A stretch of DNA of 57,067 nucleotides, taken from Elusimicrobiota bacterium (GTDB taxonomy: Bacteria; Elusimicrobiota; UBA8919). Each line of letters begins with the position of its first letter. Within the stretch, counting starts at the first letter, position 1. The position numbers were made by a program, and so were the translations under genes. Positions 137-55,600 of the stretch are shown here, one piece after another. A model generated the notes under the pieces. It did no database searches. It was not told the DNA's origin and worked only from the letters and a program-made list of their open reading frames with translations. The stretch lies in the NCBI GenBank assembly GCA_043802785.1, contig JAZDKR010000012.1, forward strand, positions 1 through 57,067, written 5' to 3'.

Positions 137-1873
137 GGATATTAAATCACCGTAAATTGCATTGCCGATATTAAGACGATTAGAAGAATCTGGTGCAGGT
201 GCGTCAACACCATAACCAATAATTATGTTTCTTCCGCCTGTTGTAAGAGTGTATCCTGACTGCCAACCTAATAATATATTGTCACTACCTGTTGTGAGAC
301 CACTACCTGCTGCATAACCCACGATAGTAGAACTGGAAAATGAAAAACCGTTACTACCATAACCTGCATAACTACCTACCAGTGTATTTTGACTGCCAAT
401 TTGAGTAAAATTGCCTGCCCGATTGCCTATGAAGATGTTGTAGTTACCAGTGGTGTTTGAATGTCCCGCAGAAACACCCAAAAAGGTGTTGCCATCCGCC
501 GTGCTATTGTAACCAGCCCGGTTGCCCAAGAAGGTGTTGTAACTACCAGTGGCGCCAAGTTGTCCCGCCTGATAGCCAAAAAAGGAATTGTAGACACCAG
601 TGTTCCTTTCGCCCGCCTGAGTGCCAACAAGTGAGTTGGCGTAACCGACACTGTTTGTATACCCAGCACGATATCCCAAAAAGGTATTGCGGCTAGCATC
701 AGCATCAGCAATATTGTATCCCGCCTGATAGCCAACAAAGGTATTTAGTACCGCAGTATTGTTTAAACCCGCCTGATAACCAACAAATGTTCCACTACTT
801 ATATTGTCAAAATTAATGAGATTAGCAACTTGCAGTGTATTGTTTGGATTCGTCGTCCCGATGCCAACATTGCCATTTACAACAACCAAAGTTGACCCAC
901 CAACGGAAAATCCTGATGCAGTAACTGTTACAGAACTACTAAATGTCTTTGACCCTGTAACCTCTTCATTCACATTACCTGTCCTGCGAACAAAATCTAG
1001 GGAATCTAACCCATCTAATTTATCCGCATTCGCTGACCCTGTAATATTGGTTAATCCAGAACCATCACCGTAATATCTCGCCGCAGATGAATAGCCAACA
1101 ATATATACATTTGATGAAAACATTGTTCGGTACAGTGTTGGTGCGTCATCAAGTATAGCACGCCCTGCATTACCAAAACAAATTGAACCACCATACACAT
1201 CAAATTTCGTCTGCGGATTCGTCGTCCCAATACCGACATTGCCTTCTTTTTTTACTACAAACAATTCTTGCCCTGATAATGTGCCACTGCTTACTACCAA
1301 CACACTCAGTCCAGCAGTAGCCGTGCTTATCCTGACGGTGCCTTTATCATATGATATGCCTGTTGCTGTATCAGACCATTTACTGAATGTTGCAGGAATA
1401 CCACCCTGTCTTAACTGCCCAGTCAAATTTATATCTCCATTTACATCCAATTTATATGCAGGATTTATCAGCCCGATACCAACATTGCCCGCTGCTGTTG
1501 ATAATAACACCCCTGAACTTACTACAAGCGCATAATTATTACCCGTATATTGAATTGTTGTTGAACCCATGATAACAGTGTTGCCATTAGAGTCAATCGT
1601 GACAACATTGTTGGGAACCGAATTTTGGATGCAAAACCTGCTCGTACCACCGGCATCGTTCAGTTTCGCTTTGATGTCGTCAGCGGCGTAAAGATTTGTA
1701 GTCGCCTGATTGAGCAGGCAAAAAAGTGTAAAGTGCAAAGTGTAAAATAACAGTGTAAGGTGTAATGTGTAAGATGTAATGTAAGAGACAAACTTTTTAC
1801 TTCCAACTTCTAACTTCGTACTTCTAACTGCCTTAATGCTTCTTGCTTTTCGCTTCTTGCTTGTTGATAACAT
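1..1873 (-). CDS. Large secreted/surface fibre-like protein with GNVGIGTTNP and NTFxGYxAG repeats; 3' end runs off the window
   Basis: Manual translation from ATG at 1873 stays open to position 1 (MLSTSKKRK...TNLYAADDIKAK...GNVGIGTTNPQTKFDVYGG...NTFVGYQAGYN...). Missed by the ORF track because there is no stop in the window. Repeats are typical of trimeric beta-helix / tail-fibre-like surface proteins. Confidence 0.85.
   Translation of the reverse strand, partial: MLSTSKKRKARSIKAVRSTKLEVGSKKFVSYITSYTLHLTLLFYTLHFTLFCLLNQATTNLYAADDIKAKLNDAGGTSRFCIQNSVPNNVVTIDSNGNTVIMGSTTIQYTGNNYALVVSSGVLLSTAAGNVGIGLINPAYKLDVNGDINLTGQLRQGGIPATFSKWSDTATGISYDKGTVRISTATAGLSVLVVSSGTLSGQELFVVKKEGNVGIGTTNPQTKFDVYGGSICFGNAGRAILDDAPTLYRTMFSSNVYIVGYSSAARYYGDGSGLTNITGSANADKLDGLDSLDFVRRTGNVNEEVTGSKTFSSSVTVTASGFSVGGSTLVVVNGNVGIGTTNPNNTLQVANLINFDNISSGTFVGYQAGLNNTAVLNTFVGYQAGYNIADADASRNTFLGYRAGYTNSVGYANSLVGTQAGERNTGVYNSFFGYQAGQLGATGSYNTFLGNRAGYNSTADGNTFLGVSAGHSNTTGNYNIFIGNRAGNFTQIGSQNTLVGSYAGYGSNGFSFSSSTIVGYAAGSGLTTGSDNILLGWQSGYTLTTGGRNIIIGYGVDAPAPDSSNRLNIGNAIYGDLISGNVGIGTTNPQTKFDVYGGSICFGNAGRAILDDAPTLYRTMFSSN
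1108..1243. repeat. Intragenic direct repeat, copy B
   Basis: Identical to 1-136; encodes GNVGIGTTNPQTKFDVYGGSICFGNAGRAILDDAPTLYRTMFSSN. Confidence 0.95.
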
Positions 1874-1903
1874 AACCAACCCCCCATAACGACAAACGAG
1901 ACA

Positions 1904-5150: not shown

Positions 5151-6070
5151 TCTTGCCTCCAAGCAACTCTTATCCCTTCGTTATCAAAATCGCAGACGAT
5201 ATACTTTGATTTTATGTTGTGTTTGTAAAATGCTTTCTGCATCGATTGACCGATCTTCGTTGCTGACCGCTGACCGCTGACAGCTAAAATTGTTGGACCG
5301 CTTCCCGAAATACAAACACCATATGCACCGGATTTTTTTGCAGAGTTAAAAACATCATCCATACCGGGAATAAGTTTTTTTCTATATGGCTGATGGAGTT
5401 TGTCGTCCATCGCAATTGAAAGCAAATCGTATTTTTTCTGAATAATTGCCGATACAAAAAGCGCAACCCTACTTGAATTGAAAACTGCATCTTTGTGCGA
5501 AACCATCTTCGGCAAAATATCTCTTGCCTTACTCGTTGATAATTCAAAATCCGGAATACACAAAACAGCTTTTAATTCCGATGGAATGTTTATTTTCGTG
5601 TATTTTACATTTTTTCCGTCAAAATTGCAAATGCACAACCCACCAAAAAACGAAGGCACGACATTATCCGGATGACCTTCAAGTTGTGAAACAATCTGAA
5701 TAATTTCATCTCCCGAAAGTTTTCCACCACAAATTTCATTAGCAGCAACTATCCCACCCAGACGGGCAGCAGCGGAGCTTCCGAGTCCTCTTGCCAAAGG
5801 AATGTTATTTATTAACTGCATGTGTAAAGTGTAAGGTGTAAAGTGTAAAGTATTAAAAACCTTTTTCATTGTCTGCCAAACGATATTTTTTCCGTCTCTC
5901 GGAAGCGTTTCCACCCCCTCTCCTACAATCTCAATTTTTAATTCTGAATTCTTAATTCTGAATTCTGACACTTCTATCTCGTTGTATAATTTTAACGATG
6001 CACCGAGCACATCAAACCCGCTGCCGAAGTTCGCCGTCGTCGCCGGAATCTTAATTTTTATTTTTTTCAT
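5147..6070 (-). CDS. thrB: Homoserine kinase
   Basis: PATTANFGSGFD, IPLARGLGSSAA (GHMP), EGHPDN, SGSGPT motifs. Confidence 0.96.
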   Translation of the reverse strand: MKKIKIKIPATTANFGSGFDVLGASLKLYNEIEVSEFRIKNSELKIEIVGEGVETLPRDGKNIVWQTMKKVFNTLHFTPYTLHMQLINNIPLARGLGSSAAARLGGIVAANEICGGKLSGDEIIQIVSQLEGHPDNVVPSFFGGLCICNFDGKNVKYTKINIPSELKAVLCIPDFELSTSKARDILPKMVSHKDAVFNSSRVALFVSAIIQKKYDLLSIAMDDKLHQPYRKKLIPGMDDVFNSAKKSGAYGVCISGSGPTILAVSGQRSATKIGQSMQKAFYKHNIKSKYIVCDFDNEGIRVAWRQE

Positions 6071-8685: not shown

Positions 8686-9585
8686 TTATTTATGAAGTAA
8701 TACTACAAAACAAGGGACTTTATAATTTTTTTCACCTTGAATTTTGTGCTTAAAGGGAAAATTAATCTCAATTGGTTTGTTCAAATTTGCATTGTTAATT
8801 ATTTCTCTGATTTTCTGTATTGATACATCTTCATCTATATAAACTACGAGCAATCTGGGATCTGCTCCGAATCTTCCTTCATCTTGATATTGGTAAAGAT
8901 ATTTTGCCACAAGAGAAGGATTCTTTATTGCTTCTTCACGCCACTTATCCTTAAAATGATTTTTGAATTGGTTTGTTGGGCTCTTCGCAACTTTTTGGTC
9001 AAAAGAAATTCCATCAATAAAAAAATCAACACCCTTTCTATGACTAAGGGTTGGCAATATGTTTTGGTTTTTTTCAAAAATTAACGTTTCAATAAAATCA
9101 TTTCTGACGGTGTTTATCTCTTTTATTCTCCGATATTTCACCGCTGCAATTTTTACTTTTTCGTCTTTTACCAATCCTGTGGATTTTTCCGAATTTATTC
9201 TTTGAACAAAACCGTCAAAATCACCTTGAGAAAACGGCCATTCAATTTTCCCCATATTCAATGTCTCCCACTCTTTTACTAGAAAATCCATTACGGCGTT
9301 TGCCTCCTTGCCGTTTTTATATTTCTCCGTTTCTTTAAATAAACCCCTGATGATTTTTTTGCTTAATTCATAATCCCAGTTATCAACAACTATTTTCCAG
9401 ATATTATTAGAACCAATATCCGGCACAGACAAACCTTTGTTTTTTCCTCGATTAAGCGTCTTGAAATTCAAACCGCTAACAGATTTTTCCTTATTCAAAC
9501 GCAACAAATAAGCAAGAGCATTTTCCTTGCTTCCTAAAATCTTTCTTGCCAGATCATCAGATAATTTTGATTTTATGTATTCCAT
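8686..9585 (-). CDS. Probable restriction endonuclease, R-M system 3
   Basis: GVDFFIDGISFDQK resembles a PD-(D/E)xK site; in the same run as MTase 10144-11091. Confidence 0.55.
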   Translation of the reverse strand: MEYIKSKLSDDLARKILGSKENALAYLLRLNKEKSVSGLNFKTLNRGKNKGLSVPDIGSNNIWKIVVDNWDYELSKKIIRGLFKETEKYKNGKEANAVMDFLVKEWETLNMGKIEWPFSQGDFDGFVQRINSEKSTGLVKDEKVKIAAVKYRRIKEINTVRNDFIETLIFEKNQNILPTLSHRKGVDFFIDGISFDQKVAKSPTNQFKNHFKDKWREEAIKNPSLVAKYLYQYQDEGRFGADPRLLVVYIDEDVSIQKIREIINNANLNKPIEINFPFKHKIQGEKNYKVPCFVVLLHK

Positions 9586-10088
9586 AGTTTTGCTTTTTTA
9601 ATGTTAAATAATATAAATTCTTCGCCGGTGGCTTCTGGATCATAATATCTAATCCCGTCATACTCTAAAGCACACACACTGTTTTCTATGTTGTTTTTAT
9701 TTTTCAGAAAAAACTTTTGAAAAGATTTCTCCTCAACTAAATCAAGAAAATTAAAATTTCCAGTAATTTTAATTGTAAAGTTTTGGGGATTATTGAAATC
9801 AGGACTATAGAAATTTATAATCGCATTTTTGTCCCTACCCAAATATAATCCTCTACCTGCCCCGCAATTAGATTTGTCTATTTTTGTATCATTAAATCCA
9901 CTTTTTAAGACACTCTGTTTATCCTTTAACGAGTTGGCTTGATGATAGAAAATACCTTCAATAAAATTATCGGGGTTACTTAAATAATAAGACCAATCTC
10001 CGTCAATATATTCCCGCATTAGATAATGTTTATATTTATAATTAAGTTTTTTAACTTCTATTTTCTGTAGACAAAAATTATTAGACAT
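9573..10088 (-). CDS. Putative ADP-ribosyltransferase-fold (HYE/PARP-like) protein
   Basis: FYHQ...SVLKSGF...GAGRGLYL...YDGI...GEEFILF parallels the PARP/ART H-Y-E motif order. Confidence 0.5.
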   Translation of the reverse strand: MSNNFCLQKIEVKKLNYKYKHYLMREYIDGDWSYYLSNPDNFIEGIFYHQANSLKDKQSVLKSGFNDTKIDKSNCGAGRGLYLGRDKNAIINFYSPDFNNPQNFTIKITGNFNFLDLVEEKSFQKFFLKNKNNIENSVCALEYDGIRYYDPEATGEEFILFNIKKAKLWNT

Positions 10089-11091: not shown

Positions 11092-12215
11092 AGCCCGATT
11101 GCTTTTATTATCTTCTTCATATCTGGCTCTAAAACCTTTGGCTGGGTTGCGGATTTGATTGCACGGTCAGGGTCTTTCAAGCCGTGACCGGTTAAGGTGC
11201 AAACAACAACAAGAGATTGGGAGATTGGGAGATTGGGAGATTGGGTTAAAAAACTTTTCTGAATATATTTTATCAGGCCGGCGAGGGAGGCGGCGGAGGC
11301 GGGTTCAACGAAAATTCCTTCAAGCGAGGCAAGTAATTTGTATGCTTTTATGATTTCAGCATCGGTAACCATATCAATTACGCCTTTCGATTCATCTCTT
11401 GCCTCTTCCGCTTTTTTCCAAGATGCAGGGTTGCCGATTTTTATTGCTGTTGCTATTGTTTTCGGATTTTTTATCGGTTTTCCTCGGACAATTGGTGCGG
11501 CACCTGACGCCTGAAAACCCATCATTTTTGGTAAGTCAGTGTAAGGTGTAAGGTGTAAGGTGTTAATTTTTTTCTTTACACTTGTCACTTTACACTTTAC
11601 ACTATATTCCTTGTATCCTTTCCAATACGCGGTGATATTTCCAGCATTGCCGACGGGTATAAAATGATAATCCGGTGTACGACCCAGAAAATCTACAATT
11701 TCAAACGCAGCAGTTTTTTGCCCTTCAATCCGATAAGGATTTAATGAATTCACAAGCGTTATTGGATATTTTTCCGTAATTTCAAGGACAATTTTCAGGG
11801 CATCGTCAAAATTTCCCTTGAGGGCGATAACCTTTGCACCGTGCATCATCGCCTGAGAAAGTTTTCCGAGAGCGATTGAACCGTCCGGAATTATAACGGA
11901 ACATTTTAGTCCTGCTTTCGCCGCATAAGCTGCCGCAGAAGCCGCAGTATTTCCGGTTGAAGCACATATTACCGCTTTGCTTCCCTCTTCAACCGCTTTT
12001 GAGATTGCCATGGTCATCCCGCGGTCTTTGAATGAGCCCGTAGGATTTGCGCCTTCAAATTTGAGATAGAGATTGAGATTGAGTCCGCCTAATGCGGATT
12101 CTAAATTCTTTGCACGTAAGAGTGGCGTATTGCCTTCGTAAAGCGTAATGATCGGCGTTTTATCTGTTACCGGCAAAAATTTTCTGTACCGTTCAATTAT
12201 TCCTTTGTAAATCAT
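11088..12215 (-). CDS. thrC: Threonine synthase
   Basis: [13 protein letters not shown]-lysine motif, ASTGNT, PVGNAGN, TGHGLKD; start at MIYKG (12215). Confidence 0.96.
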
Positions 12216-18232: not shown

Positions 18233-18256
18233 ATAATCTCCTTAATTGTTCTTATA

Positions 18257-18315
18257 TTCTAACGATAGATCTCAGCGGCGACGTACTCGCCGTCCACTGC
18301 ACCGATTTGTTAGAG
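18257..18315 (-). other. Integron attC site
   Basis: Minus strand CTCTAAC (contains GyrI stop)...GCAGTGGACGGCGAGTACGTCGCCGCTGAG...GTTAGAA; 59 bp imperfect palindrome. Confidence 0.85.
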
Positions 18316-18903: not shown

Positions 18904-18913
18904 ATTTGTTTCC

Positions 18914-19288: not shown

Positions 19289-19295
19289 ATAAAGT

Positions 19296-33580: not shown

Positions 33581-34024
33581 CAAGAAAACTGAATAGCCAC
33601 GAATTACACGAAAAACTAATTTCTTTTCTTTTTAATTCGTGAAATTCGTGGCAGATCCCGCCTCGGCGGGATACTTTTCTATACTTCAAGAAAATCTTGT
33701 AACAACAGATACTCACAGATTTTCACAGATGACCCCGCCAAAGCGGGGACGAAGTCCCCTGCCCGACAGATGGCAGGCGGGCGTGGTAATCCAATGAGAT
33801 TGCTTCGTCAGTCGTCCCGATTTTATCGGGACTCCTTCCTCGCAATGACATCTGCGTTTTGATGAAATAAAATATGCCCGATAAATCGCCTGCCCGACGG
33901 CAAGGCGGGGGCAACTACATTTGCTGTTGTAGTTGCTCAATTTATTGAGCGTTTTATTCAAATTCTTCGCCGAAGGTTGAAAATCCGCCGTGGCGGGCGA
34001 ACCTACTCGGCGATACCACAAATT

Positions 34025-36782: not shown

Positions 36783-36924
36783 TGTAGTCGCTCAATTTAT
36801 TGAGCGCTGTTATTGAACACCGTCATACCCAACAAAACCGCCCTATAAATTGGGCAACTACAAATCAACGGCAAATCTACAAATCAACGGCAAATCAACG
36901 ACGCCTGATAAATCAGGCAACTAC
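36783..36924. repeat. GTAG-type REP cluster (three copies plus AAATCAACGGC tandem) between convergent genes
   Basis: TGTAGTCGCTCAATTTATTGAGCG; GCCCTATAAATTGGGCAACTACA; GCCTGATAAATCAGGCAACTAC (provides the ppdK TAG). Confidence 0.85.
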
Positions 36925-39665
36925 TTTTCTTCCACAACAACTTGGGCAGCGGCAAGTTTCGCAATTGGAACTCTGAACGGTGAGCAAGAAACATAGTCCA
37001 TCTTAGCATAATGGCAGAACTTTACCGATTCCGGGTCGCCGCCGTGTTCTCCACAAATTCCAATTTCAAGATTTTTTTTGGTTTTTCTGCCTCGCTCAAT
37101 TCCGATTTTGATTAACTCCCCGATTCCTTCAAAATCAATCGTTGCAAACGGGTCGCAGGGCAGAATTTTTTTCTCTAAATAATCCGGCATAAATCCGCCT
37201 ATGTCATCTCTGGAAAAACCAAATCCCATCTGAGTTAAATCGTTCGTTCCGAATGAAAAAAATTCAGAGACCTCGGCGATTTTTCCAGCCGTCAATGCCG
37301 CTCTTGGAATTTCAATCATCGTGCCGAACAAATACGAGATTTTTTTCAAACCAAATTTTTTCAGTACTTCTTTGTAAATTCCCTCAACGATTTCTTTTTG
37401 ATTTTGTAATTCGTGAACCGTTCCAACTACAGGAATCATAATTTCCGGAATCACCTTTTTGCCTTCTTTGAGCAATTCGGCAGATGCTTCAAAAATCGCA
37501 CGAACCTGCATCTCCGTAATTTCAGGATATGTTATTCCCAGACGAACACCGCGGTGTCCCATCATCGGATTTGACTCGTGCAAAACGTTTGCCCTTTTAT
37601 TAAATTCCTCATCAGATATTCCAATTGATTCCGCAAGTTTTTTTCGTTCCTCTTCATTTTTGGGAACGAATTCGTGCAAGGGCGGATCCAAAAGACGGAT
37701 AACAACAGGAAAACCTTCCATTGCTTCTAATGTGCCCTTGATGTCGTTTTTAACAAACGGGAAAAGTTCGGAAAGTGCTTTTTTTCTTTCTTCAAGTCCA
37801 CCTGAAATTATCATCTTTCTCAGTAAAAACAGCGGCTGCTCCGAACCCTTTCCGTAAAACATATGCTCCGTCCTAAAAAGTCCAATTCCCTCAGCACCAA
37901 AAGTTCTCGCCTTTTTTGCGTCCTCCGGTGTATCGGCATTTGTTCGCACATCTAATTTTCTTATTTTGTCGCATATCTTAATAAACTCAACAAAATACGG
38001 GTTTTCCCCGGCAGCTTTTACCATCGGAAGTTGTCCGCTATAAATATAACCCCTTGAACCGTTGAGAGTTAACCAATCGCCTTCTTTTAATACGATATCG
38101 CTACCGGTTACTTTCAGCGTTTTTTCTTTGTAGTCAATGTGAAGTTCACCAGCACCGACGATACAACACTTGCCCCAACCACGAGCAACAAGTGCAGCGT
38201 GAGATGTCATTCCACCTCGCGCGGTTAAAATTGCATTTGCAGCACGCATACCTTCAACATCTTCCGGGTTTGTTTCCTCTCTGACAAGAATAACATCTTT
38301 TCCGTTTTTCTTCCAGGCAACTGCATCATTGGCAGAAAAGACAATCATTCCAGTAGCACCACCGGGTCCCGCTGGGAGCCCTTTTGCGAACGGTTTTGAC
38401 TTCGCTTCCGTTATAGGGTCAACAATAGGATGCAAAAGTTCGTCAAGTTGAGACGGTGTTACTCGCATCACTGCCACCTCTTTCGTAATCAATTTTTCCT
38501 TTACCATATCAACTGCTATTCTGATGGCAGCAGGTCCAGTTCTTTTTCCCACGCGACACTGTAACATCCAAAGTTTTCCTTCTTGAATGGTGAACTCAAT
38601 ATCCTGCATATCATGGTAGTGATTTTCAAGTTTCTTCTGAAATGCATGAAGTTGTTTATATAATTCCGGCATTGCCGTTTCAAGTGACTGAAACTTTTTG
38701 TTCTGCTCGGTTTTTCCCTGCTCGTTTATCGGATTCGGAGTTCTGATACCAGCGACAACATCCTCGCCCTGTGCATTTACAAGCCACTCACCGTAGAAAA
38801 CCTTTTCACCAGTTGCAGGATTTCTTGTAAAGGCAACACCAGTCGCGGAAGTATTACCCATATTTCCGAAAACCATCGCTTGAACACTTACAGCGGTTCC
38901 CCATTCATCGGGAATACTTTCTATCCGACGGTAAGAAATCGCTCTTTTTCCCTGCCACGACTGAAACACAGCACCAATTCCACCCCACAACTGTTCCATC
39001 GGATTTTCAGGAAATTCCTTGCCCAAAACCTCTTTCACTTTTAATTTATAAATTTCAATAAGTTCTTTTAAGTCATCTGCGGTTAAATCCGTGTCCTGCT
39101 TGGCACCTTTTTTCACTTTCATCTTATGGAGTTCCTTCTCAAGTTGCTGACGAACACCACAGCCCTCTTTCGGCTCTTCCAGAGAGCCTACTTTTGGTTC
39201 AATTCCTGCTGCTTTTTCCATGACAACATCCGAATACATCTGTATCAGACGACGATGTGCATCATAGACAAACCTCGGATTACCTGTCTTTTTGATAAGT
39301 GCTTCACGGGTCTCGTTGTTAAGCCCGACATTTAAGACGGTTTCCATCATCCCTGGCATTGAACGGCGGGCACCACTTCGGACTGAAACCAAGAGCGGAT
39401 TTTCCTTGTCACCAAATTTACAATCCATCAATTTTTCAACTTTGACAAGTGCTGCCTCAACCTGCTTTGATAACTCAGGCGGATATTTTTTCTTACTTTT
39501 ATAATATGCCGTGCAAACATCTGTCGTTATTGTAAATCCGGCGGGAACAGGAAGCCCTATCTTTACCATCTCGGCAAGATTTGCACCCTTGCCCCCCAAA
39601 AGATTTTTCATCTTTTCATTTCCATCCGCATGCCCTTTGCCAAAAAAATACACATACTTTGCCAT
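36921..39665 (-). CDS. ppdK: Pyruvate, phosphate dikinase
   Basis: LGGKGANL, SVRSGA, GGMTSHAA phospho-His, SFGTNDLTQ, CGEHGG. Confidence 0.98.
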   Translation of the reverse strand: MAKYVYFFGKGHADGNEKMKNLLGGKGANLAEMVKIGLPVPAGFTITTDVCTAYYKSKKKYPPELSKQVEAALVKVEKLMDCKFGDKENPLLVSVRSGARRSMPGMMETVLNVGLNNETREALIKKTGNPRFVYDAHRRLIQMYSDVVMEKAAGIEPKVGSLEEPKEGCGVRQQLEKELHKMKVKKGAKQDTDLTADDLKELIEIYKLKVKEVLGKEFPENPMEQLWGGIGAVFQSWQGKRAISYRRIESIPDEWGTAVSVQAMVFGNMGNTSATGVAFTRNPATGEKVFYGEWLVNAQGEDVVAGIRTPNPINEQGKTEQNKKFQSLETAMPELYKQLHAFQKKLENHYHDMQDIEFTIQEGKLWMLQCRVGKRTGPAAIRIAVDMVKEKLITKEVAVMRVTPSQLDELLHPIVDPITEAKSKPFAKGLPAGPGGATGMIVFSANDAVAWKKNGKDVILVREETNPEDVEGMRAANAILTARGGMTSHAALVARGWGKCCIVGAGELHIDYKEKTLKVTGSDIVLKEGDWLTLNGSRGYIYSGQLPMVKAAGENPYFVEFIKICDKIRKLDVRTNADTPEDAKKARTFGAEGIGLFRTEHMFYGKGSEQPLFLLRKMIISGGLEERKKALSELFPFVKNDIKGTLEAMEGFPVVIRLLDPPLHEFVPKNEEERKKLAESIGISDEEFNKRANVLHESNPMMGHRGVRLGITYPEITEMQVRAIFEASAELLKEGKKVIPEIMIPVVGTVHELQNQKEIVEGIYKEVLKKFGLKKISYLFGTMIEIPRAALTAGKIAEVSEFFSFGTNDLTQMGFGFSRDDIGGFMPDYLEKKILPCDPFATIDFEGIGELIKIGIERGRKTKKNLEIGICGEHGGDPESVKFCHYAKMDYVSCSPFRVPIAKLAAAQVVVEEK

Positions 39666-44427: not shown

Positions 44428-44473
44428 ATATATCCTACAAATCCGCCGTGGCGGACTCCTACGGAGCTAACAG

Positions 44474-44553
44474 CAGAGATTAAAAGATTAGGAAATTGGG
44501 AAATTAGGGTTTTGACCTTTCCTAATATCCTAATCTCCATTTTCCTAATCTCT
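44474..44553. repeat. GAGATTRGG/CCTAATCTC palindromic element (complete copy)
   Basis: 9-mer periodic arms in inverted orientation; homologous to 33304-33391, 49020-49085 and 3124-3176. Confidence 0.85.
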
Positions 44554-44583
44554 ATTCTTCATTGTTCTATTAACAGGTCGCCC

Positions 44584-46017
44584 TTAACGAGATTGTTTGC
44601 TCCTCCGTCCCTGTTTCATTAGTATTGCCGATAAAGTTGAAAACCCAACTTTTATATCCGACAAATTTCTTATTTTGAAAACTCTTTTCAGTAAATAATT
44701 GGGTCGCCAATAAAATTTTCTGTATGCCATGTTGTAATATTCTTTAATTTCTTTCACACTGACCGTCGGTAAGTTCATTATCGGTCTTGATAAATCATAA
44801 TCGTCCCAATTTTCTGTGATTAAAATTCCTTTTTCTTTCGCCCAATTAAACATCTCGCTTCCAGGATAAGGAGTTGTTATATTAAAAATAGCGACATCTG
44901 GCGCCAACTGTATAGCATAATCAATGGTTTTTTGCATCGTCTCTTTTGTTTCACCCGGATTGCCGAGCATAAATGCCGCACGGACATCCATTCCTGTTTT
45001 TTTTGTTATGTTGATTATTTCCTTAACCTTTTCAAGAGAAATTTTTTTATGAATATTTTTCAGTATCTCCTCGTCACCGGATTCAATTCCGTACATTATC
45101 TGATGGCAACCTGCCTCTTTCATTGCCCTCAACAATTCTTCGTCCACAAAGTCCACCCTCGCGAAACAAGACCATGAGACACTCATTTTCTCTGTGATAA
45201 TTTTTTTGCACAAGTTTTTTACATTTTCTTTTTTTGTGGTAAAGACATCGTCGTAAAAACTAATCTCTTTTATTCCATATCTGTCCTGAAGCAAAAACAT
45301 TTCTTCAAAAATCTTTTCGGCAGAGCGATTTCTAACCTGTTGCCCAAGATAACTACCGAGACAAAATGTGCATCTTCCGGGGCACCCCCGGGTTGTCATC
45401 ATTCCCATCGCAGGAAGTTTTTTGTAACTTCCCCTCGCAGGAAAATATTTTTCCATTGGAAGTAAATGATATGCGGGAAACGGCAAAGTATTTATATCGG
45501 AAATTACGGCTCGCTCTGAATTATGAATAATATTTTTGTCTTCTTTATACGAAAGCCCTGTGATTTTTTTTCTGTCCACTCCGGATATAAGTTCTCTGAA
45601 TGTTTCCTCACCTTCGCCTCTGATTACAAAATCAACGGATTCTTCTTTCAATACATCCTCTGCCATAACAGACGGATGAACTCCGCCTAAAACTATTTTT
45701 GTATTGCCTTGGCGAGAAAAAATATCTTTTGCTATTTTTGAGACAATTAAAGAGGACGAAATAGTGGGTGTCGCGGCAGTTATACCTATGTATTCAGGGG
45801 TATTTTTCTGTTTTGCGGACCCAGTGCTTCGCAACATCTGATCAATTTCTTTATATGAAAGTTTAAGGGCATCCGCATCAATTATTTCAACACTGACATC
45901 GCTTTTTTCCAAATATGCCGCGATGAATGCTAATCCAAAAGGAGGCATGCAACTTGCCACATCCCGCCAGATGCCGCCTTTCGTTATCCACGGTGGATTG
46001 ATAAGTAAAACATTCAT
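44584..46017 (-). CDS. B12-binding radical SAM protein (class B methyltransferase-like)
   Basis: N-terminal cobalamin domain (PPFGLA, GGVHPS, RGEGE); TRGCPGRCTFC; GIESG. Confidence 0.92.
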   Translation of the reverse strand: MNVLLINPPWITKGGIWRDVASCMPPFGLAFIAAYLEKSDVSVEIIDADALKLSYKEIDQMLRSTGSAKQKNTPEYIGITAATPTISSSLIVSKIAKDIFSRQGNTKIVLGGVHPSVMAEDVLKEESVDFVIRGEGEETFRELISGVDRKKITGLSYKEDKNIIHNSERAVISDINTLPFPAYHLLPMEKYFPARGSYKKLPAMGMMTTRGCPGRCTFCLGSYLGQQVRNRSAEKIFEEMFLLQDRYGIKEISFYDDVFTTKKENVKNLCKKIITEKMSVSWSCFARVDFVDEELLRAMKEAGCHQIMYGIESGDEEILKNIHKKISLEKVKEIINITKKTGMDVRAAFMLGNPGETKETMQKTIDYAIQLAPDVAIFNITTPYPGSEMFNWAKEKGILITENWDDYDLSRPIMNLPTVSVKEIKEYYNMAYRKFYWRPNYLLKRVFKIRNLSDIKVGFSTLSAILMKQGRRSKQSR

Positions 46018-46709
46018 TAATTTGTAAATCTGTATTTAATCAAAGTTATCAGTGCCGTAACACCATCACGCCAGCCGATTTTTTTCCCTTCTTTGTATGT
46101 TCTACTTTGATAAGAAATCGGCATTTCGTATATCGAAATTTTTTTTTTAAGAATTTTTGCTGTTACCTCCGGTTCAAATTCAAACCTGTTCGCCGTTAAG
46201 TTTAATGACAATATAACATCGCTTCTAAAAACTTTATAGCATGTTTCCATGTCCGTTATATTTGCTCTGTAAATAAAATTAGTAAAAAAATTCAACAACT
46301 TATTGCCAAGATAGTGATGCACAAAACTTTTTTCTTTCAACTGTAAAAATCTTGAACCATAGACAACCGACGATTTTCCTTCAATTATGGGAACTATAAG
46401 CTTTCTAATTTCTTCCGGATTGTATTCCAAATCCGCATCCTGAATTGTGACAATTTCACCGGTTACATATAATAATGCGGTTCTTATCGCAGCCCCTTTC
46501 CCCTGATTTTTTTCATGCAATACAATTTGCAATTTGCAATTTGCAATTTGCAATTTATTCAGTATCTCCCTTGTTCCATCAGTAGAATAATCGTCAACAA
46601 TGATAATTTCTCGGGGAGAAAGAGAAAGCACTTTTTCAACCACCTTTTCAATCGTGGCTTTTTCGTTAAACACCGGCATAATTATTGAAACTTTTTCTAA
46701 ATTATTCAT
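46017..46709 (-). CDS. GT2 polyprenol-phosphate glycosyltransferase (DPM-synthase-like)
   Basis: PVFNE, VDDYSTDGT, QDADLEY, TDMETCYK. Confidence 0.93.
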   Translation of the reverse strand: MNNLEKVSIIMPVFNEKATIEKVVEKVLSLSPREIIIVDDYSTDGTREILNKLQIANCKLQIVLHEKNQGKGAAIRTALLYVTGEIVTIQDADLEYNPEEIRKLIVPIIEGKSSVVYGSRFLQLKEKSFVHHYLGNKLLNFFTNFIYRANITDMETCYKVFRSDVILSLNLTANRFEFEPEVTAKILKKKISIYEMPISYQSRTYKEGKKIGWRDGVTALITLIKYRFTN

Positions 46710-46888: not shown

Positions 46889-48073
46889 CTATAAAAACTC
46901 TCTAAACACACAATTTGCAAACATTATTCCTTTGTCTGTAAGTTTCAGAAAATCGTTCCGCTCCGATAATAAACCATCATTTTTAAGATTGTTGATTTTT
47001 GCTGAAAATTTTTCTTTTATTTTACTTGATATTTTCATCCCGTCGGTAAGCCGTAAGCCGAGCATCAAATCCTCGGACATTTTTTGCTCGTTGTTAAGTT
47101 CTTCAAAATCAGAATGAAATTTTCCGTTTAAGTAATCTGTAAGATTTTCAGTATTTTTTATTCTTTTGCCCTTGATATATGAAACGGCACCAAGTCCAAA
47201 ACCCAGATATTCGCCGTTGCGCCAGTAATTTATGTTGTGCTGACATTGCCGCCCAGGACGACCAAAATTGGAAATCTCATAATGATGATAACCATTTTTT
47301 TTAAGATATTCAATCGCGAATTCATACATATCTGCGGATAAATCATCGTCCACAACAACACCGTTTTTGTGGAAATTCGTGCCTTCTTCAACGGTTAAAT
47401 TATATACGGAAATATGTTCGGTATTAAAAGTTATCGCCTCAGTTAAAGTTTTTTGCCAATCTCTTAATGTCTGCTCTGGGATACCGAAAATTAAATCAAT
47501 GTTTATATTTTCAAAACCGATTTTTCGTGCAATGTCAAATTTTTTTAAAAAATCCTCTTTTGTATGAACCCGCCCGAGTATTTTCAATAAATTATTATCA
47601 AGTGCCTGAAGACCAAAACTTAAGCGGTTAATCCCGAAACTTTTCAGAAGTTTTAATTTGTCCTTCGTAATTGATTCTGGATTTATTTCATATGTACTCT
47701 CATAAGGAGGATTTAATCTGACACATTCTGATTTAAACAGATTACTGAACAAGAATTCAATCTGTTTTTCGGAAAAAATGGAAGGAGTACCACCACCAAC
47801 ATAGATGGAAGATGGAAGATGAAAGATGGAAGATGGAAGACAAAAAGAAAACTCTTTAACGAGAACTTTTAGGTATCTATCTATGAGATTATGAGATTCC
47901 TCGCTCCGCTCGGAATGACCCGCCAGTGGCGGGTCATCTGTGCCATCTGCGGTTTTTCTCTGTGTCATCTGTGTAATCGGTGTTGAGACAAAATCACAAT
48001 AATTACATTTTTTTCTGCAAAACGGTATATGAATATAGATTCCCGTTTTCACGGGAATGACACTTTGTGTCAT
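46889..48073 (-). CDS. hemW: HemN-like radical SAM heme chaperone
   Basis: YIHIPFCRKKCNYCDF, GGGTPS, YEISNF, HNINYW; near lepA. Confidence 0.88.
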   Translation of the reverse strand: MTQSVIPVKTGIYIHIPFCRKKCNYCDFVSTPITQMTQRKTADGTDDPPLAGHSERSEESHNLIDRYLKVLVKEFSFCLPSSIFHLPSSIYVGGGTPSIFSEKQIEFLFSNLFKSECVRLNPPYESTYEINPESITKDKLKLLKSFGINRLSFGLQALDNNLLKILGRVHTKEDFLKKFDIARKIGFENINIDLIFGIPEQTLRDWQKTLTEAITFNTEHISVYNLTVEEGTNFHKNGVVVDDDLSADMYEFAIEYLKKNGYHHYEISNFGRPGRQCQHNINYWRNGEYLGFGLGAVSYIKGKRIKNTENLTDYLNGKFHSDFEELNNEQKMSEDLMLGLRLTDGMKISSKIKEKFSAKINNLKNDGLLSERNDFLKLTDKGIMFANCVFREFL

Positions 48074-50669: not shown

Positions 50670-52538
50670 TTACTCAGCGTCAAGTTGTAGCACCGCCAGA
50701 AACGCCTCTTGAGGAATTGAAACATTGCCAAACTGCTTCATTTTTTTCTTGCCTTCTTTCTGCTTTTCAAGAAGTTTTCTTTTTCTTGAAATGTCGCCGC
50801 CATAACATTTGGCTATTACATCTTTTCTTAACGCACGGACATTTTCACGGGCAATGATTTTTCCCGAAACAGATGCCTGTATGGGAATCTCAAACTGCTG
50901 CCTGGGAATAAGTCCTCTCAATTTGTCCACTATTTTTCTTCCGTAAAATTCGGCATTATTTTTATGAATAACAAATGAGAGAGCATCAACTGTCTCACTG
51001 TTAACAAGAATGTCCATCTTTACCAATTCCGATTCTTTATAGTCAGAAAATTCATAGTCAAACGAGGCATAGCCGGATGAAACGGATTTCAGATTATCGT
51101 AAAAATCCACGATTACATCAGCCAACGGCATCTCGTAGACAAGTTTTACTTTATCCTCGGTAATGTATGTCATATCAAGAAAATCGCCTCTTTTTCCCTC
51201 GCAAAGAGCCATCACATTTCCAACAAACTGGGACGGCAAAATAATTGTCGCAAGAATATACGGCTCATAAATTTTTTCTATAAATTGCCTTTCGGGAAAT
51301 TTTGACGGATTTTCTATTTCAATTATAGATTGCTTCACCCCGATTTCATCGGGGTTCGCAATGACAGTCGAGGGAACTTCGCCACTACTTGTTCTATTGC
51401 ATTTTATTCTATACCTAACATTGGGCGCTGTGATGATAAGATTAAGATCAAACTCTCTCTGAAGTCGCTCCTTGACGATATCCATATGAAGAAGTCCCAA
51501 AAATCCGCAACGGTATCCGAACCCGAGTGCAACGGATGTTTCCGGCTGATAAAAAAAAGAGGAATCCTCTAAATGAAGTTTTCCCATCGCTTTTGATAGA
51601 TTGGCATAATCGCCCGGCTGAACTGGATATAATCCACAGAACACAAATGGCTTTAATTCACGATAACCAGGATGAGGTGTCACCGTCTGGTTTTCAAATC
51701 CCGTGATGGTATCTCCGATTTTTATTTTGTGAATATCCCTGATTCCCAAAATTACATAACCAACCTCGCCAGCGGAAAGTTTTTTGGTCATTGAACGTCC
51801 GGCAGGAGCGTCTGGATTTTGAATTTGAAAAAACCCAACTTCTTCAACATCAAATTTTTCTAAGTTTGATAAAAAAATTACTTTATCGCCGGTTGAAATT
51901 TCACCGTCAAAAATCCGTACATAAATTATAACCCCGCGAAATGAATCGTAATGCGAATCAAACACTAATGCTTTGAGCGGTTTTTTTATATCACCGCTGG
52001 GAGCAGGAATTTTTAAAATTATAGCGTCAACAATCTCTTTTGTGCCGATGTTCTGCTTGGCAGAAATAAGAATAGGACTTTCTTTAATTTTCAGCACTTT
52101 CTCTATCTGTTGGGCGGTCTTTGAAACATCCGCCTGCTTTAAGTCAATTTTGTTGATAACCGGAATGATTTTCAGGTTGTGCTGGTGGGCAAGTTCAAAA
52201 TTGGAAAGCGTCTGCGCCTCAACGCCCTGAGAGGCGTCAACCAAAAGAAGGCAGCCCTCGCAGGCGGCAAGCGCGCGGGAAACCTCGTAAGTAAAATCAA
52301 CATGACCCGGGGTGTCTATCAGATTCAACTGATAAGTTTCACCCGTGGAAGTTGTGTAATTCAAGCGGACCGCTTTTGCCTTAATTGTAATTCCACGCTC
52401 TCTTTCCAAATCCATCGCATCTAAAACCTGTCCATGATGTGAAGTGGAAATTGCGGATGTCAACTCCAAAAGACGGTCTGCCAAAGTGGATTTTCCGTGG
52501 TCAATATGTGCTATGATAGAAAAATTTCGGATGTTCAT
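50670..52538 (-). CDS. lepA: Elongation factor 4
   Basis: IAHIDHGKSTLADR, DTPGHVDF, KCYGGDISRKRKLL. Confidence 0.98.
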   Translation of the reverse strand: MNIRNFSIIAHIDHGKSTLADRLLELTSAISTSHHGQVLDAMDLERERGITIKAKAVRLNYTTSTGETYQLNLIDTPGHVDFTYEVSRALAACEGCLLLVDASQGVEAQTLSNFELAHQHNLKIIPVINKIDLKQADVSKTAQQIEKVLKIKESPILISAKQNIGTKEIVDAIILKIPAPSGDIKKPLKALVFDSHYDSFRGVIIYVRIFDGEISTGDKVIFLSNLEKFDVEEVGFFQIQNPDAPAGRSMTKKLSAGEVGYVILGIRDIHKIKIGDTITGFENQTVTPHPGYRELKPFVFCGLYPVQPGDYANLSKAMGKLHLEDSSFFYQPETSVALGFGYRCGFLGLLHMDIVKERLQREFDLNLIITAPNVRYRIKCNRTSSGEVPSTVIANPDEIGVKQSIIEIENPSKFPERQFIEKIYEPYILATIILPSQFVGNVMALCEGKRGDFLDMTYITEDKVKLVYEMPLADVIVDFYDNLKSVSSGYASFDYEFSDYKESELVKMDILVNSETVDALSFVIHKNNAEFYGRKIVDKLRGLIPRQQFEIPIQASVSGKIIARENVRALRKDVIAKCYGGDISRKRKLLEKQKEGKKKMKQFGNVSIPQEAFLAVLQLDAE

Positions 52539-52546
52539 GATAACAT

Positions 52547-52677
52547 CAGGATTAAGGATTAAGTAGTCAGGATTAAGTTGTAAGTAGTAAGAATTAAGTT
52601 TTAAATCTTTTACTTAATCCTTATCACTTATCACTTACCACTTACCCCTTACCACTTACCACTTAATCCTTATTACT
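52547..52677. repeat. Inverted heptamer tracts filling the lepA/rpoC divergent spacer
   Basis: (GATTAAG/TAGTAAG)n followed by (CTTATCA/CTTACCA)n. Confidence 0.88.
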
Positions 52678-52686
52678 GGTGTTAAT

Positions 52687-55600
52687 ATGGCGAAATTCAT
52701 TAAAAATCAGTTAAAAAAATCATTAAAGCCGAAAAGAAAAACTGTCGACCAGTTAAATTATGCAGAGTTTGACAGAATCAAAATTTCTCTCGCATCACCG
52801 GAGGTTATCCGTTCGTGGAGTTATGGTGAGGTGAGAAAACCGGAGACAATAAATTACAGGACATTCAAACCGGAGAGGGACGGTCTTTTTTGCGAAAAAA
52901 TTTTTGGGCCCGTTAACGACTGGGAATGCAACTGCGGAAAATATAAATGGGTCAAGCACAAGGGTATTGTATGCGACAGATGTGGCGTTGAGGTTACAGA
53001 ATCAAAAGTTCGTCGAGAGCGAATGGGTCATATTGATCTTGCCACTCCTATTGCACATATCTGGTTTATGAGAAAGAATCCTTCCAAAATCGCAACGCTT
53101 TTGGATATGAAACTTTCAGATATTGAAAAAATAGTTTATTATGCAATGTATGTTGTTTTATCCGTAGAAAAGAATGAAAACAAACTTCCGCTCTATGAAA
53201 AACAACTCCTGACCGACGAGGAATATCAAAAATACAAAAGTGATGCGGAATTGAAATTTAAGGTGGGAATAGGTGCGAGTGCGATTTTGGAGTTGATAAG
53301 AAATACTGATTTGGATAAAGAGGCGAAGGAAATTACTGCCGACATTAAAAAAGGGAAGTCAGAGGCAAACAAGATTAAGTTTGTCAAACGGCTTCGTCTC
53401 ATAAACGGGTTTTTGAAAAGCGGATTTAAGCCAGAATGGATGATTTTCACTACAATTCCTGTTCTTCCTCCTGATTTAAGGCCATTGGTTCCTCTTGAAG
53501 GAGGCAGGTTTGCGGCATCCGACTTGAACGATTTATACAGAAGAATAATAAACAGAAATAACCGTCTTCGTCATTTGGAAGCACTGAAATCGCCGGAACT
53601 TATGATTCACAATGAAAAACGTCTATTGCAGGAAGCAGTTGACTCGCTTTTTGAAAACGGTGCCAAGGGAAAAATTGTAACAGGTGCCGGCAACAGACCT
53701 TTGAAATCACTTTCCGATGTTATCAAGGGCAAAAACGGCCGTTTCCGTCAAAATCTTCTTGGAAAAAGGGTTGATTATTCAGGAAGAAGCGTTATAGTTG
53801 TTGGACCAGAAATGAAGTTGAGCCAGTGCGGACTTCCGAAAGAAATGGCTCTTGAACTGTTCAAACCATACATTATCAAAGAAATAATATCCCGAGGGTT
53901 TGTGTCATCGCTAAAAGCCGCAAAAAGATTTTTAGAAAAAGAGCGTCCCGAGGTCTGGGATATATTAGAGACAATAACAAAAAACCATCCGGTTATGCTG
54001 AACAGAGCGCCTACTTTGCATCGTATGGGCATTCAGGCATTTTATCCGGTTTTGATTGAGGGTCGTGCGATACGACTTCATCCTTTAACCTGCACGGCGT
54101 TCAATGCCGATTTTGATGGCGACCAGATGGCTGTTCATATTCCGCTTTCAGCGGAAGCAATCAAAGAAGTTAACGAAAGGATGCTTTCAACCAAAAATCT
54201 GCTTCTTCCTTCAAGTGGAAGACCGGTTGTTTCGCCCAGTCAGGATATGGTTGTCGGCTGTGCTTATCTTACAAAGCCAAAAGACGGCGTTATGGGCGAG
54301 GGAATGATTTTTTCGGATACCGACGAGGTATTATCGGCATATCAAAATGGACAGATTGACCTCAATGCGAAAATAAAAGTGAGAGGAATAAATAAAATCA
54401 GGGAAGAAGAGAGTGAGAGAGGAAGAGAGAAAGAGAGTAAGAGAGAAGTAGCGGCGGGATTGCGAGCCCGCAAAAATGTTGGAAGTTGGGCTGATTACAC
54501 AACAGTAGGGCGAGTGATATTCAACAGCATAATTCCATCCGAGTTGGGTTTTACAAACAAATCAGTTGGGAAAAAAGATGTTGCTAACATAGTTGAAGCA
54601 TCTTTCAAAAAATTAGGCAATGACAAGACCGTTATTCTGTTGGACGAAATTAAAAAAATGGGTTTTCGTTATGCGACACTTTCCGGACTTTCAATTTCCA
54701 TTGATGATCTAATTGTTCCGAACGAAAAGTCAAAAATGATAAATGAAACACGGGGAAAAGTTAAAGAATTTGAAAGACAGGCAAGAAAGGGAGTCATCAC
54801 AAACAAAGAAAGATATGAAAAAATCATTGACGAATGGACGAGAACGACTGATAAAATTTGCGATTTAATGTTTGATAAAATGGAAGCACAGGAATCGTTC
54901 CCTTATAAAGAGGGCGAGCCAAAGTTCAACTCGCTTTTTATTATGTCAAATTCCGGTGCGCGTGGAAGCCGGGCACAGGTAAGGCAATTGGGTGGTATGC
55001 GAGGGCTTATGGCTAAACCGGCAAAACGGCTGACCGGTCAAATTGGCGAAATTATTGAGCAGCCGGTTGAGGCGAATTTTAGAGAAGGACTTACCGTTTT
55101 GGAATATTTTATTTCAACCCACGGTGGAAGAAAAGGACTTGCCGACACAGCACTTAAAACATCGGAAGCCGGCTATCTAACTCGCCGTCTTGTTGATGTC
55201 GCTCATGATGTGGTGATTACAGAGGATGACTGCGGCACATTAAACGGAATAAAAGTAGGTGCGATTGTTTCGGGTGATGAAGCAATAGAGTCATTAGCCG
55301 AAAGAATTGTCGGAAGATGCGCACTTGATAATATCGTCGGAGTTATTCAGACACCGTCCGGAGAATACAAAGAAGAACTTATAATAAAAGAGCATGAAAT
55401 AATAACGGCGGAGCAGTCAAAAATGGTGGTTCATGCCGGCATTGAATCCATTAGAATCCGTTCCGTTTTAACCTGCGAGACAAAAAACGGCATCTGTGCA
55501 AAGTGTTATGGACTTGATCTCGCAACCGCCAGAGAGATAGAAAAAGGCGAGGCGATTGGTATAATAGCGGCACAGTCCATCGGTGAGCCGGGTACGCAGT

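Follow-up and report, generated by a model that had tools for sequence, protein, structure and literature searches.

The DNA stretch analysed here, called the window throughout, is an entire contig (C12, 57,067 b) from the metagenome-assembled genome (MAG) of an uncultured, free-living groundwater bacterium. Our subject is a set of short tandem arrays with units of 7 or 8 nucleotides (nt), together with small hairpins, which are found between genes as well as in frame inside conserved genes of this contig (thrB, thrC, GT2, hemW, lepA, rpoC and ppdK) and of the rest of the assembly (1.56 Mb, 93 contigs, 37% G+C, completeness 78%). The repeats look cyanobacterial; nonetheless, the host is not a cyanobacterium, since rpoC is a single unsplit gene (1394 amino acids, aa, with all five Rpb1 domains present) and LepA is 91% identical to proteins of MAGs named 'Elusimicrobiota bacterium'. 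No Rfam family was matched in the window at gathering thresholds. Tracts in the window were detected with Tandem Repeats Finder and then translated in the frame of the gene itself, and orthologues of each window protein were taken from up to 16 related genomes, ten of them in the taxonomic family of the host (f1). Where these need to be told apart they carry labels, of which G001 is a genome of the same genus and G017 belongs to another family. The arrays inside genes of the window are the following.

5929..5968, minus strand: thrB heptamer tract 1, (TCAGAAT)n, aa 35-48
5822..5851, minus strand: thrB heptamer tract 2, (ACTTTAC)n, aa 74-83
5262..5285, minus strand: thrB heptamer tract 3, (GGTCAGC)n on the coding strand, aa 262-270
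11213..11245, minus strand: thrC octamer tract, (CCCAATCT)x4, aa 343-354; the same loop holds heptamers or GTCATT palindromes in orthologues
11539..11603, minus strand: thrC inverted heptamer pair, (AGTGTAA)n...(ACACCTT)n, a hairpin within the coding sequence (CDS); folding -11.3 kcal/mol, z -4.2
46523..46556, minus strand: GT2 heptamer tract, (AAATTGC)x4.9, aa 52-63, aligned with orthologues
47803..47840, minus strand: hemW heptamer tract, (TCTTCCA)x5.4, aa 78-91, aligned with orthologues
54403..54471, plus strand: rpoC octamer tract, (AAGAGAGN)x5 (54403-54447), followed by a GTAG-tagged hairpin, GTAGCGGCGGG...CCCGC (54448-54471)

The in-frame position of the heptamers in thrB (three), thrC, GT2 and hemW, and of the octamers in thrC and rpoC, agrees with an earlier note on this DNA. 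The note had also taken the heptamer tracts to be insertions, a view to be given up if orthologues had segments of equal length at these positions, and at the three thrB sites and in GT2 this is what was found. The thrB tracts coincide with no indel relative to most of the 11 orthologues, apart from a difference of +4 aa in G001 at site 2 and a palindromic insertion of 10 aa in G003. At site 1, seven of the 11 orthologues have, as judged by eye, period-7 or period-8 arrays of other units (CGAAGTC, GTCAAAG, GTTAAAA, GTCCRAN, GTCCAAA, AATTAAA and the octamer GAGTTCAC), with a length difference of 0 to +3 aa. Site 2 is occupied in orthologues by arrays of AAATTAC, ATATTAC, ACTTTAC or TYGGAAG, and at site 3 the G008 orthologue has the identical unit (GGTCAGC x4) at unchanged length. 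The predicted structure of ThrB is weak (mean pLDDT 61.6) and was given little weight; it places all three tracts in loop and edge regions, tract 1 (aa 35-48) on a strand-turn-strand, tract 2 (74-83) from the end of a helix into a strand and tract 3 (262-270) from a strand into a helix. The GT2 segment equals in length those of G001 (unit AAATTAC), G010 and G002, and in G005 and G006 CCGCC..GGCGG hairpins are inserted within the array.

The sites in hemW and thrC vary more in length. Arrays of four different units occupy the hemW site in four of the 10 complete family sequences (the window and three orthologues), and the array segment is 10-14 aa longer than in four outgroup families. The thrC loop, between WKGYKEY and LPKMMGFQ, measures 8-11 aa in four outgroups and from 4 to about 40 aa within the family, where marked arrays are seen in seven of 11 sequences; two members of one genus have nearly no loop, and the tract is absent altogether in G010 and G009. 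Arrays of differing units also occur at the same loops in other genera for thrB, hemW, GT2, rpoC, PrmC and HypF. Because orthologues hold arrays of other units there, we regard these loops as long-lived array sites with unit turnover and not as recent insertions.

A second group of features consists of small hairpins, several of which are absent from orthologues.

51327..51366, minus strand: in-frame nested palindrome GTCATT...AATCT in lepA, window only; net +9 aa relative to the same-genus orthologue
39174..39197, minus strand: 24-nt GTAG-tagged hairpin in ppdK, in frame, +8 aa, absent from 14 of 14 orthologues; -5.9 kcal/mol, z -2.0
36903..36926, minus strand: GTAG-2 repetitive extragenic palindrome (REP) abutting the ppdK 3' end; its own TAG is the stop codon
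47893..47934, minus strand: internal palindromes of hemW, CCCGCC..GGCGGG and then GTCATTCC...GGAATCTC, with a GTCATT element; part of an insertion of about 22 aa
48031..48062, minus strand: N-terminal GTCATT palindrome of hemW; coding status uncertain, as a GTG start lies downstream
33929..34010, no strand: GTAG-2 and GTAG-1 REPs 5' of the PBP1A gene, non-coding
1697..1866, minus strand: three heptamer tracts and a GTAG-2-like REP within the first 60 codons of the open reading frame (ORF) 2-1879; its start codon, hence its coding status, is uncertain

Alignment with orthologues thus confirmed window-specific additions in lepA (+9 aa), ppdK (+8 aa) and rpoC, where the segment is net +14 aa relative to eight of 11 orthologues and where the octamer arrays of G010 and G006 consist of other units. 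Other elements occupy the lepA loop in relatives, namely a GTAG REP (G009) and a CCCGCC..GGCGGG hairpin (G005). The GTAG REPs that the earlier note placed inside coding sequences are in frame in ppdK (39174-39197) and rpoC, whereas the second ppdK element lies at the 3' end and supplies the stop codon, a use of the TAG of GTAG REPs that is described in an excerpt of PMC3733652. The gene it called a surface protein is PBP1A, and the REPs of the ORF at 33977 were ruled out as coding since they lie upstream of the real ATG (MKKWIFLAVG). Its GTCATT palindromes are in frame in lepA (51327-51366) and in hemW at 47893-47934, the other hemW copy being the one with the uncertain start. In total, ten of the listed cases proved to be in frame, and three lie at the edges of ORFs. 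Matches to GTCATTSC in ppdK (38206), in the gene at 40045-42321 and in rpoC (54596 and 56733) had no palindrome and were dropped as chance.

ORF 2-1879, which runs off the contig end, matched no family. It contains an exact 136-nt duplication (1-136 and 1108-1243, 1107 nt apart) and a 29-nt motif at 108-136, 846-874, 1215-1243 and 1461-1489, spaced by multiples of 123 nt, and may be either a surface protein rich in repeats or the product of assembly collapse.

The same repeats were then counted over the whole assembly, using one detector for periods 3 to 12 and a third-order Markov sequence as the control. The host genome has 232 tracts of period 7 and 95 of period 8, versus 3 and 0 in the control, and what the earlier note observed in the window applies genome-wide. 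For the remaining periods, the host has 3 tracts (period 3), 1 (4), 0 (5), 14 (6), 8 (9), 0 (10), 3 (11) and 2 (12), and the control 16, 9, 5 and 2 for periods 3 to 6 and none for periods 8 to 12. The excess of arrays is therefore restricted to periods 7 and 8. By position, the 232 heptamer tracts are divided into 78 inside CDSs, 114 intergenic, 14 near 5' ends, 25 at boundaries and 1 near a 3' end; for octamers, a set of 119 tracts taken at a lower threshold than in the period comparison gave 23, 80, 7, 8 and 1, respectively.

The 101 CDS-internal tracts are distributed over 79 genes, whose median length is 368 aa. A sample of 20 of these genes consisted entirely of named NCBIfam families: HypF (with six tracts), ValRS, Lnt, PurH, a B12-radical-SAM protein, LeuRS, PrmC, ArgRS, YggS, RmlD, RsmE, a NuoL-like subunit, Ddl, HisC, TyrA, IspG, CobT, CarB, AcsV and GT2. 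When the arrays are considered together with five palindrome classes, at least one internal micro-element is present in 148 of 1149 confident genes (at least 100 aa, coding score at least 30), or about 1 in 8. In-frame repeats of several unrelated families in conserved genes thus extend well beyond the window.

Arrays inside and between genes differ in several respects. All coding-strand frames are free of stops for 71 of the 78 CDS heptamer units, and 38 of the 114 intergenic ones have stops in both orientations, versus 21% for random units. The longest heptamer array measures 39 nt in CDSs and 93 nt between genes. A complementary partner within 90 nt was found for 42 of 194 intergenic tracts, for 1 of 101 CDS tracts and for none of 200 random 30-mers. 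The window holds two such intergenic hairpins.

44471..44563, no strand: intergenic periodic hairpin with octamer arms (GAGATTNN); folding -17.1 kcal/mol, z -4.9
52536..52689, no strand: intergenic periodic hairpin with heptamer arms (GGATTAA / CTTACCA) in the lepA-rpoC gap; folding z -5.9

Given these partners and folding values, the intergenic arrays are mostly arms of long hairpins, and genes retain single or weakened arms, with the exception of the thrC pair (z -4.2).

Such folding could mean that the repeats are not selfish DNA and that selection maintains them for some function, as protein linkers or signal peptides, as RNA regulatory hairpins or as frameshift contingency loci. The same loops remain array sites from genus to genus, and regulatory roles have been proposed for intergenic heptamers of Beggiatoaceae and Nostoc in the excerpts available of PMC4679880 and of bioRxiv 2022.06.06.494920. 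Selection at the protein level is opposed by the periods themselves, since 7 and 8 are not multiples of 3 and periods 6 and 9 are rare. Moreover, units and peptides vary freely among orthologues, up to the missing thrC tract of G010 and G009, on/off switching would be lethal in hosts as essential as RpoC, LepA and the tRNA synthetases, and the CDS tracts lack the hairpin partner in all cases except one. We consider a function of this kind improbable.

Recent activity is clearest for the 24-nt element found in ppdK, CCRAGTAGGTTCGCC-NNN-GGCGAA, with a GTAGG tag, a 6-bp stem and a 3-nt loop, and exactly 24 nt long in all copies read. An initial model of the GTAG REPs, a perfect GTAG...CTAC palindrome, found only four copies and was replaced after reading copies. 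Allowing up to 2 mismatches, there are 108 copies in the host genome, 3 in the same-genus genome, 5 and 2 in two other genera and none in 27 further relatives, and a search of 185,579 species genomes gave only 5 single matches elsewhere. This is a species-level burst, and to the extent that at least this one family is recently active, it supports the earlier note. Among 102 copies, 51 are CDS-internal and 50 lie in confident genes, where the five open frames are used by 13, 8, 10, 7 and 12 copies and the frame containing TAG by none, as predicted if insertion is blind and purifying selection follows. The flanks have the consensus T-W-G^G-R-A, and no target-site duplication was found at copies outside arrays. 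Excising the 24 nt in silico restored a 7- or 8-nt periodicity at 20 of 102 copies, versus 1 for joins shifted by 1-2 nt. As an example, PrmC has an uninterrupted (ACTTCCC)4 in G005, and the identical array of the host is split by a clean 24-nt insertion. Most copies of the other micro-element families lie between genes; those inside CDSs amount to 11 of 116 for GTAG-2, which is mostly extragenic, to 34 of 153 for GTCATTGCGA and to 44 of 120 for the CCGCC hairpins.

Several elements may be combined in one gene. The host ValRS has about 100 extra residues over four sites. A composite of about 69 nt, (AGTTCACG)4-(CCRAGAAC)4, occurs at two of its sites as a 23-aa insertion and is missing from two orthologues at one of them; one block consists of three units of octamer plus 24-nt element, and one 24-nt element is nested in a GTCATT palindrome. 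Tandem series of three [8-nt unit + element] repeats with a 32-nt period were observed at C27:2537-2624 and C88:11973-12060; three copies make 96 nt, and the block therefore remains in frame. HypF has ten repeat-bearing sites, several of them missing from the two orthologues found. G001 has two full-length ValRS genes (L130 and L135, on contigs C7 and C90) that are 79-80% identical to the query and differ in their repeat insertions, which points to a bin of two strains or to a genuine duplication.

Two further observations concern the palindromes. GTAG-2 REPs form head-to-tail arrays with a period of about 44-47 nt on contigs C7 (~45505-45735), C9 (at its ends), C10 (~2731-2913) and C17 (~9571-9792); several of these are at contig ends and probably cause assembly breaks. 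A contig of a related strain, from the one public run listed with a small share (0.06) of the sequence words, a DNA and not an RNA run, has a 24-nt palindromic insertion at window position 11008, in the gene 10144-11091 (a weak DNA-methyltransferase match), which looks like the size class of the GTAG element yet belongs to another family.

Since the genome is a MAG in 93 contigs and 78% complete, with REP arrays at several contig ends, and since three cases of the earlier note proved to be effects of ORF edges, one may ask whether the tracts result from metagenome assembly or binning, or from mechanical ORFs that run through intergenic repeats. An assembly artefact is unlikely as their source, because the tracts are 20-70 nt long, below the length of sequencing reads, and have orthologous counterparts in 10 further family genomes, each assembled independently. 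In addition, the flanking protein aligns on both sides in one frame, and the 24-nt element avoids only the frame that contains a stop. Artefacts of either sort are thus extremely improbable as an explanation for the whole pattern.

As for the genes that might be responsible, no catalytic candidate turned up in the window, as the earlier note had also stated, and the search was extended to the assembly. There, four matches to TIGR02436 exceed the cutoff (one of them broken by three stops), besides a fragment, one TIGR04256 gene (GxxExxY) and two GIY-YIG matches. The TIGR02436 genes correspond to PF05635, the 23S-rRNA-intervening-sequence protein (133 bits; the bAvd-like model gives 38 bits, slightly below cutoff), and the TIGR04256 gene to PF13366, of the PD-(D/E)XK nuclease family; no 23S (LSU) rRNA gene was found in the assembly. 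The four PF05635 genes, including the broken one, and the PF13366 gene are each bracketed by inverted periodic arrays, for example (GGGTATA)n...(CTATCCC)n or GGCGTTCACG-AGTTTATG-AGTTCACG...CATGAACC-TATGAACGCC, and no transposase lies within these cassettes. The broken PF05635 cassette, on contig C72, has arms of the AGTTCACG family. This family also forms empty hairpins at six intergenic places, which have arms and GGCGTTCA...TGAACGCC ends in common with the broken cassette, and it is found in frame in ValRS and four other genes. Four kinds of genes flanked by the repeats had been named in the earlier note; inverted arrays were found for the four-helix-bundle and GxxExxY genes, and not for the small GIY-YIG gene, and the REPs next to Y1 genes are of other families (see below).

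The association was examined in 13 genomes. Complementary flanks (score at least 12) were found at 12 of 14 sampled four-helix-bundle loci and 7 of 10 sampled GxxExxY loci, versus 5 of 150 small genes of the host. Arrays of 7 or 8 nt occur in a flank of 12 of the 14 four-helix-bundle loci, and the periodic arms of GxxExxY genes have units of 10-11 nt. In addition, 125 of 351 host tracts are within 1 mismatch of sampled cassette arms of relatives, the rough chance estimate being several-fold lower. We also compared arbitrary samples of 64-80 kb per genome with the number of PF05635 and PF13366 genes, as follows: G006, 35 tracts and 19 genes; G005, 23 and 3; G017, 13 and 13; G030, 4 and 4; G014, 3 and 3; G001, 3 (in 77 kb) and 0; G011, 2 and 0; G015, 0 and 1; G020 and G013, none of either. 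With the host included (n=11), cassette-gene number and array density have a Spearman correlation of 0.80. An excerpt of PMC3936711 reports PF05635 genes scattered within cas loci, which fits a selfish cassette. An apparent four-helix-bundle fusion in G006 (L169:10453-11619) was rejected as an internal insertion, being a read-through into a downstream TPR-like lipoprotein gene (388-aa frame); a protein can gain an N-terminal extension when a cassette inserts immediately upstream of its gene.

Taken together, we consider it probable that the genomes of this lineage have been colonised by nested families of micro-elements, arranged in two layers and filtered by selection. The first layer, old and common to the taxonomic family, would be the tandem 7- and 8-nt arrays, forming between genes the two arms of long imperfect hairpins. 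These arrays may be the arms of hairpin-shaped cassettes that carry PF05635 (Avd-like four-helix bundle) genes, with analogous arms of 10-11 nt around some PD-(D/E)XK 'GxxExxY' genes, and empty hairpins and single arms would be cassette derivatives. The second, young layer would comprise tiny hairpins, namely the 24-nt GTAG element, the GTCATT...AATCTC nested palindromes and the CCGCC..GGCGG hairpins, which would insert into one another and preferentially into arrays. Insertion would be blind to genes and selection would then act as a filter, the survivors in genes being short, with a net length that is a multiple of 3 and no stop in the frame read, and lying in tolerant loops; such loops would stay array sites in the long term while the unit sequence turns over. 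The families may also act in trans and together, as the earlier note supposed. What that note observed is real and goes further than it stated. Its reading is partly supported: the idea of selfish micro-elements, some of which survive in frame, is right in spirit, and it fails for several heptamer tracts, which are old array sites.

A broader version of this proposal is possible, and we put it forward tentatively. Heptamer and octamer arrays like the short tandemly repeated repetitive sequences (STRRs) would then be the periodic arms of unrecognised selfish hairpin cassettes and not the outcome of slippage. Their loop gene would be an Avd-like 23S intervening-sequence (IVS) gene or a PD-(D/E)XK nuclease gene, the empty hairpins and single arms would spread as landing pads for 24-nt hairpins, and new peptide loops would be written into at least a tenth of the proteome, with essential enzymes among the targets.

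The main rival is that the arrays are ordinary long simple-sequence repeats made by local slippage with an intrinsic 7-8-nt step and persisting in fully tolerant loops; hairpins and cassettes would merely favour these arrays, or hairpin loops, when they land, with no cassette origin and no common machinery. Heptanucleotide repeats are the commonest 5-11-nt class in many genomes, and polymerase slippage has been proposed for them (Mrazek 2007, as cited in an excerpt of PMC4679880). The host has as many as 81 distinct heptamer units and 52 distinct octamer units, arm units are unlike between cassette copies, the 24-nt element demonstrably enters pre-existing arrays, and G001 has arrays and no cassette gene that we found. 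Slippage fits less well with one unit being present at many loci of one genome (AAGTGGT at 30 loci of the host, AGTTCACG at 7, of which 6 are within genes). Dominant units are moreover specific to each genome (AAGTGGT in the host, AATGTCC and AAGTCCG in G005, AAAAATT in G006), and spread within the genome therefore fits better than purely local birth. The ValRS composite of about 69 nt, which occurs twice and is missing from two orthologues at one site, is also difficult to explain by slippage, single-unit births in essential genes would pass through frameshifts, and in sampled families that lack cassette genes, with comparable GC content, 0-2 tracts were counted per 64-80 kb. We find local slippage a rather improbable account of the arrays.

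Several points weigh against the proposed colonisation and its cassettes. No mobility was observed, and the contigs of the public run come from relatives at 85-95% identity, none of the same strain. The gene calls are our own (1449 genes, 86% coding), and the structure model of ThrB is poor. The turnover of units at constant length has to be accounted for, and simple slippage does not explain it, because one step of a 7- or 8-nt unit would shift the frame. A tract in a flank is present at 42 of 150 random small genes of the host; a plain array in one flank is therefore uninformative, and only the test for inverted arms discriminates. The four-helix-bundle locus of G017 is without complementary flanks and that of G007 is weak. 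Arm units vary between cassette copies, so that the arrays could be landing sites of cassettes instead of their parts. Arrays exist in G001 (94% complete) without a cassette gene found, likewise in G011 with its 2 tracts, and G005 has 23 tracts yet only 3 cassette genes. The correlation given above is only a lead, because related genomes are not independent.

The same caution applies to the Y1 transposases. Four PF01797 (Y1/HUH) matches exist in the host genome, and two of these loci, bracketed by 2-4 inverted REPs of their own families, are REPtron-like. These REPs belong to other, low-copy families; the GTAG..CTAC palindrome was not seen within 700 nt of the Y1 genes of the host, and the nearest copy of the 24-nt element (GTAG-1) lies about 0.5 kb from the Y1 gene on contig C9. 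The best Y1 protein exceeds the cutoff of the NCBIfam IS200/IS605 model (66 bits, 55 required) and falls short of that of the RAYT model (33 bits, 80 required). As a gene discriminating array-rich genomes, the Y1 transposase was rejected: it is present in 10 of 10 relatives of the family but also in families with few or no sampled arrays (9 copies in G015, 6 in G014, 2 in G012). The conserved left flank of the 24-nt element and its lack of target duplications would fit a single-strand HUH mechanism, and the enzyme responsible may be a Y1/HUH transposase, a PD-(D/E)XK nuclease or neither.

Other repeats of the window are of a different kind. Two 300-nt stretches, 25571-25870 and 29762-30061, are 85% identical and 4191 nt apart, and lie in ORFs 25569-26384 and 29760-30539, which are probably paralogous genes. 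At 18235-19597, three copies of a segment ending in CAGCGGCGACGTACTCGCCGTCCACTGCA are spaced by exactly 657 nt around small ORFs, in what looks like a tandem gene or cassette array.

The phenomenon is a variant of the known STRR and REP or Rickettsia palindromic element (RPE) kinds. Selfish DNA in frame within genes has precedents in Rickettsia and in a few bacteria rich in REPs, and cyanobacteria are known for heptamer arrays. In Nostoc, small dispersed repeats of 21-27 nt are reportedly hairpin-forming and embedded in heptamer arrays; the element described here, at 24 nt with a 6-bp stem and 20 of 102 copies in phase in arrays, has the same properties. Like cyanobacterial STRRs, the arrays are dispersed, tandem, in excess as head-to-tail 7-nt units (232 tracts versus 3 in the Markov sequence) and contain hairpins of about 24 nt. 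Unlike them, they have an Elusimicrobiota host, octamers are as typical as heptamers, and none of the 232 tracts exactly matches the three STRR units (STRR1-3). They are further set apart by about one third of arrays being in frame in conserved genes and possibly by the link to PF05635 and PF13366 seen here. Heptanucleotide arrays are known in cyanobacteria, Beggiatoaceae and others; according to Mrazek 2007, as cited in PMC4679880, genes would be largely free of arrays whose unit length is not divisible by three; here, by comparison, about a third of the heptamer (78 of 232) and a fifth of the octamer tracts (23 of 119) are CDS-internal.

The small hairpins have their own relatives. GTAG REPs are short GC-rich hairpins with a GTAG tag, in high copy and sometimes inside ORFs, as set out in an excerpt of Di Nocera et al. 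2013 (PMC3733652). The elements described here resemble GTAG REPs and REPtrons as tagged palindromes of 20-40 nt in high copy, and in the TAG stop at ppdK; Y1 genes flanked by inverted REPs, of other families, exist in the genome. Unlike GTAG REPs, which are mostly extragenic, the 24-nt element is half genic, in phase in arrays and near the lower limit of size. RPEs measure about 100-150 bp, encode a conserved peptide and occur in an obligate intracellular host (Ogata et al. 2000, through an excerpt of PMC10969869). Here, as in RPEs, selfish palindromic DNA would be tolerated as added peptide, in frame in unrelated housekeeping genes; the differences are a size of 24-70 nt, the many families, the non-triplet arrays, the nesting, a 24-nt element read in five frames and a free-living host. 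Miniature inverted-repeat transposable elements have terminal inverted repeats with a target-site duplication and derive from an autonomous element; here, the empty AGTTCACG hairpins have arms and ends in common with the broken PF05635 cassette, and no target-site duplication was seen at non-array copies of the 24-nt element. Intervening sequences of 23S rRNA carry a PF05635 gene, sit in a 23S helix and are removed by RNase III. The cassettes share with them a small PF05635 four-helix-bundle gene in the loop of a long inverted repeat, and differ in lying between ordinary genes and in having tandem 7-8-nt arrays as arms. The literature searched held no account of non-triplet arrays in frame at orthologous loops across genera, of their scale in essential genes, of an Elusimicrobiota host or of the link between arrays and PF05635 or PF13366, and the intragenic REP tables of PMC3733652 may list comparable cases.

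The lineage combines non-triplet arrays in essential genes, array positions conserved from genus to genus despite changing units, a 24-nt element that has undergone a species-specific burst and lands in phase within arrays, and a physical link of arrays to PF05635 and PF13366 genes. This combination makes the origin of the repeats testable by comparative surveys and simple biochemical assays. Annotators and phylogenomicists should be aware that, in uncultured bacteria, many of the insertions by which marker proteins of one lineage differ may derive from repeats. If the arrays are indeed arms of cassettes, and if this is general, STRRs, 23S rRNA intervening sequences and some lineage-specific protein insertions would have a common origin.

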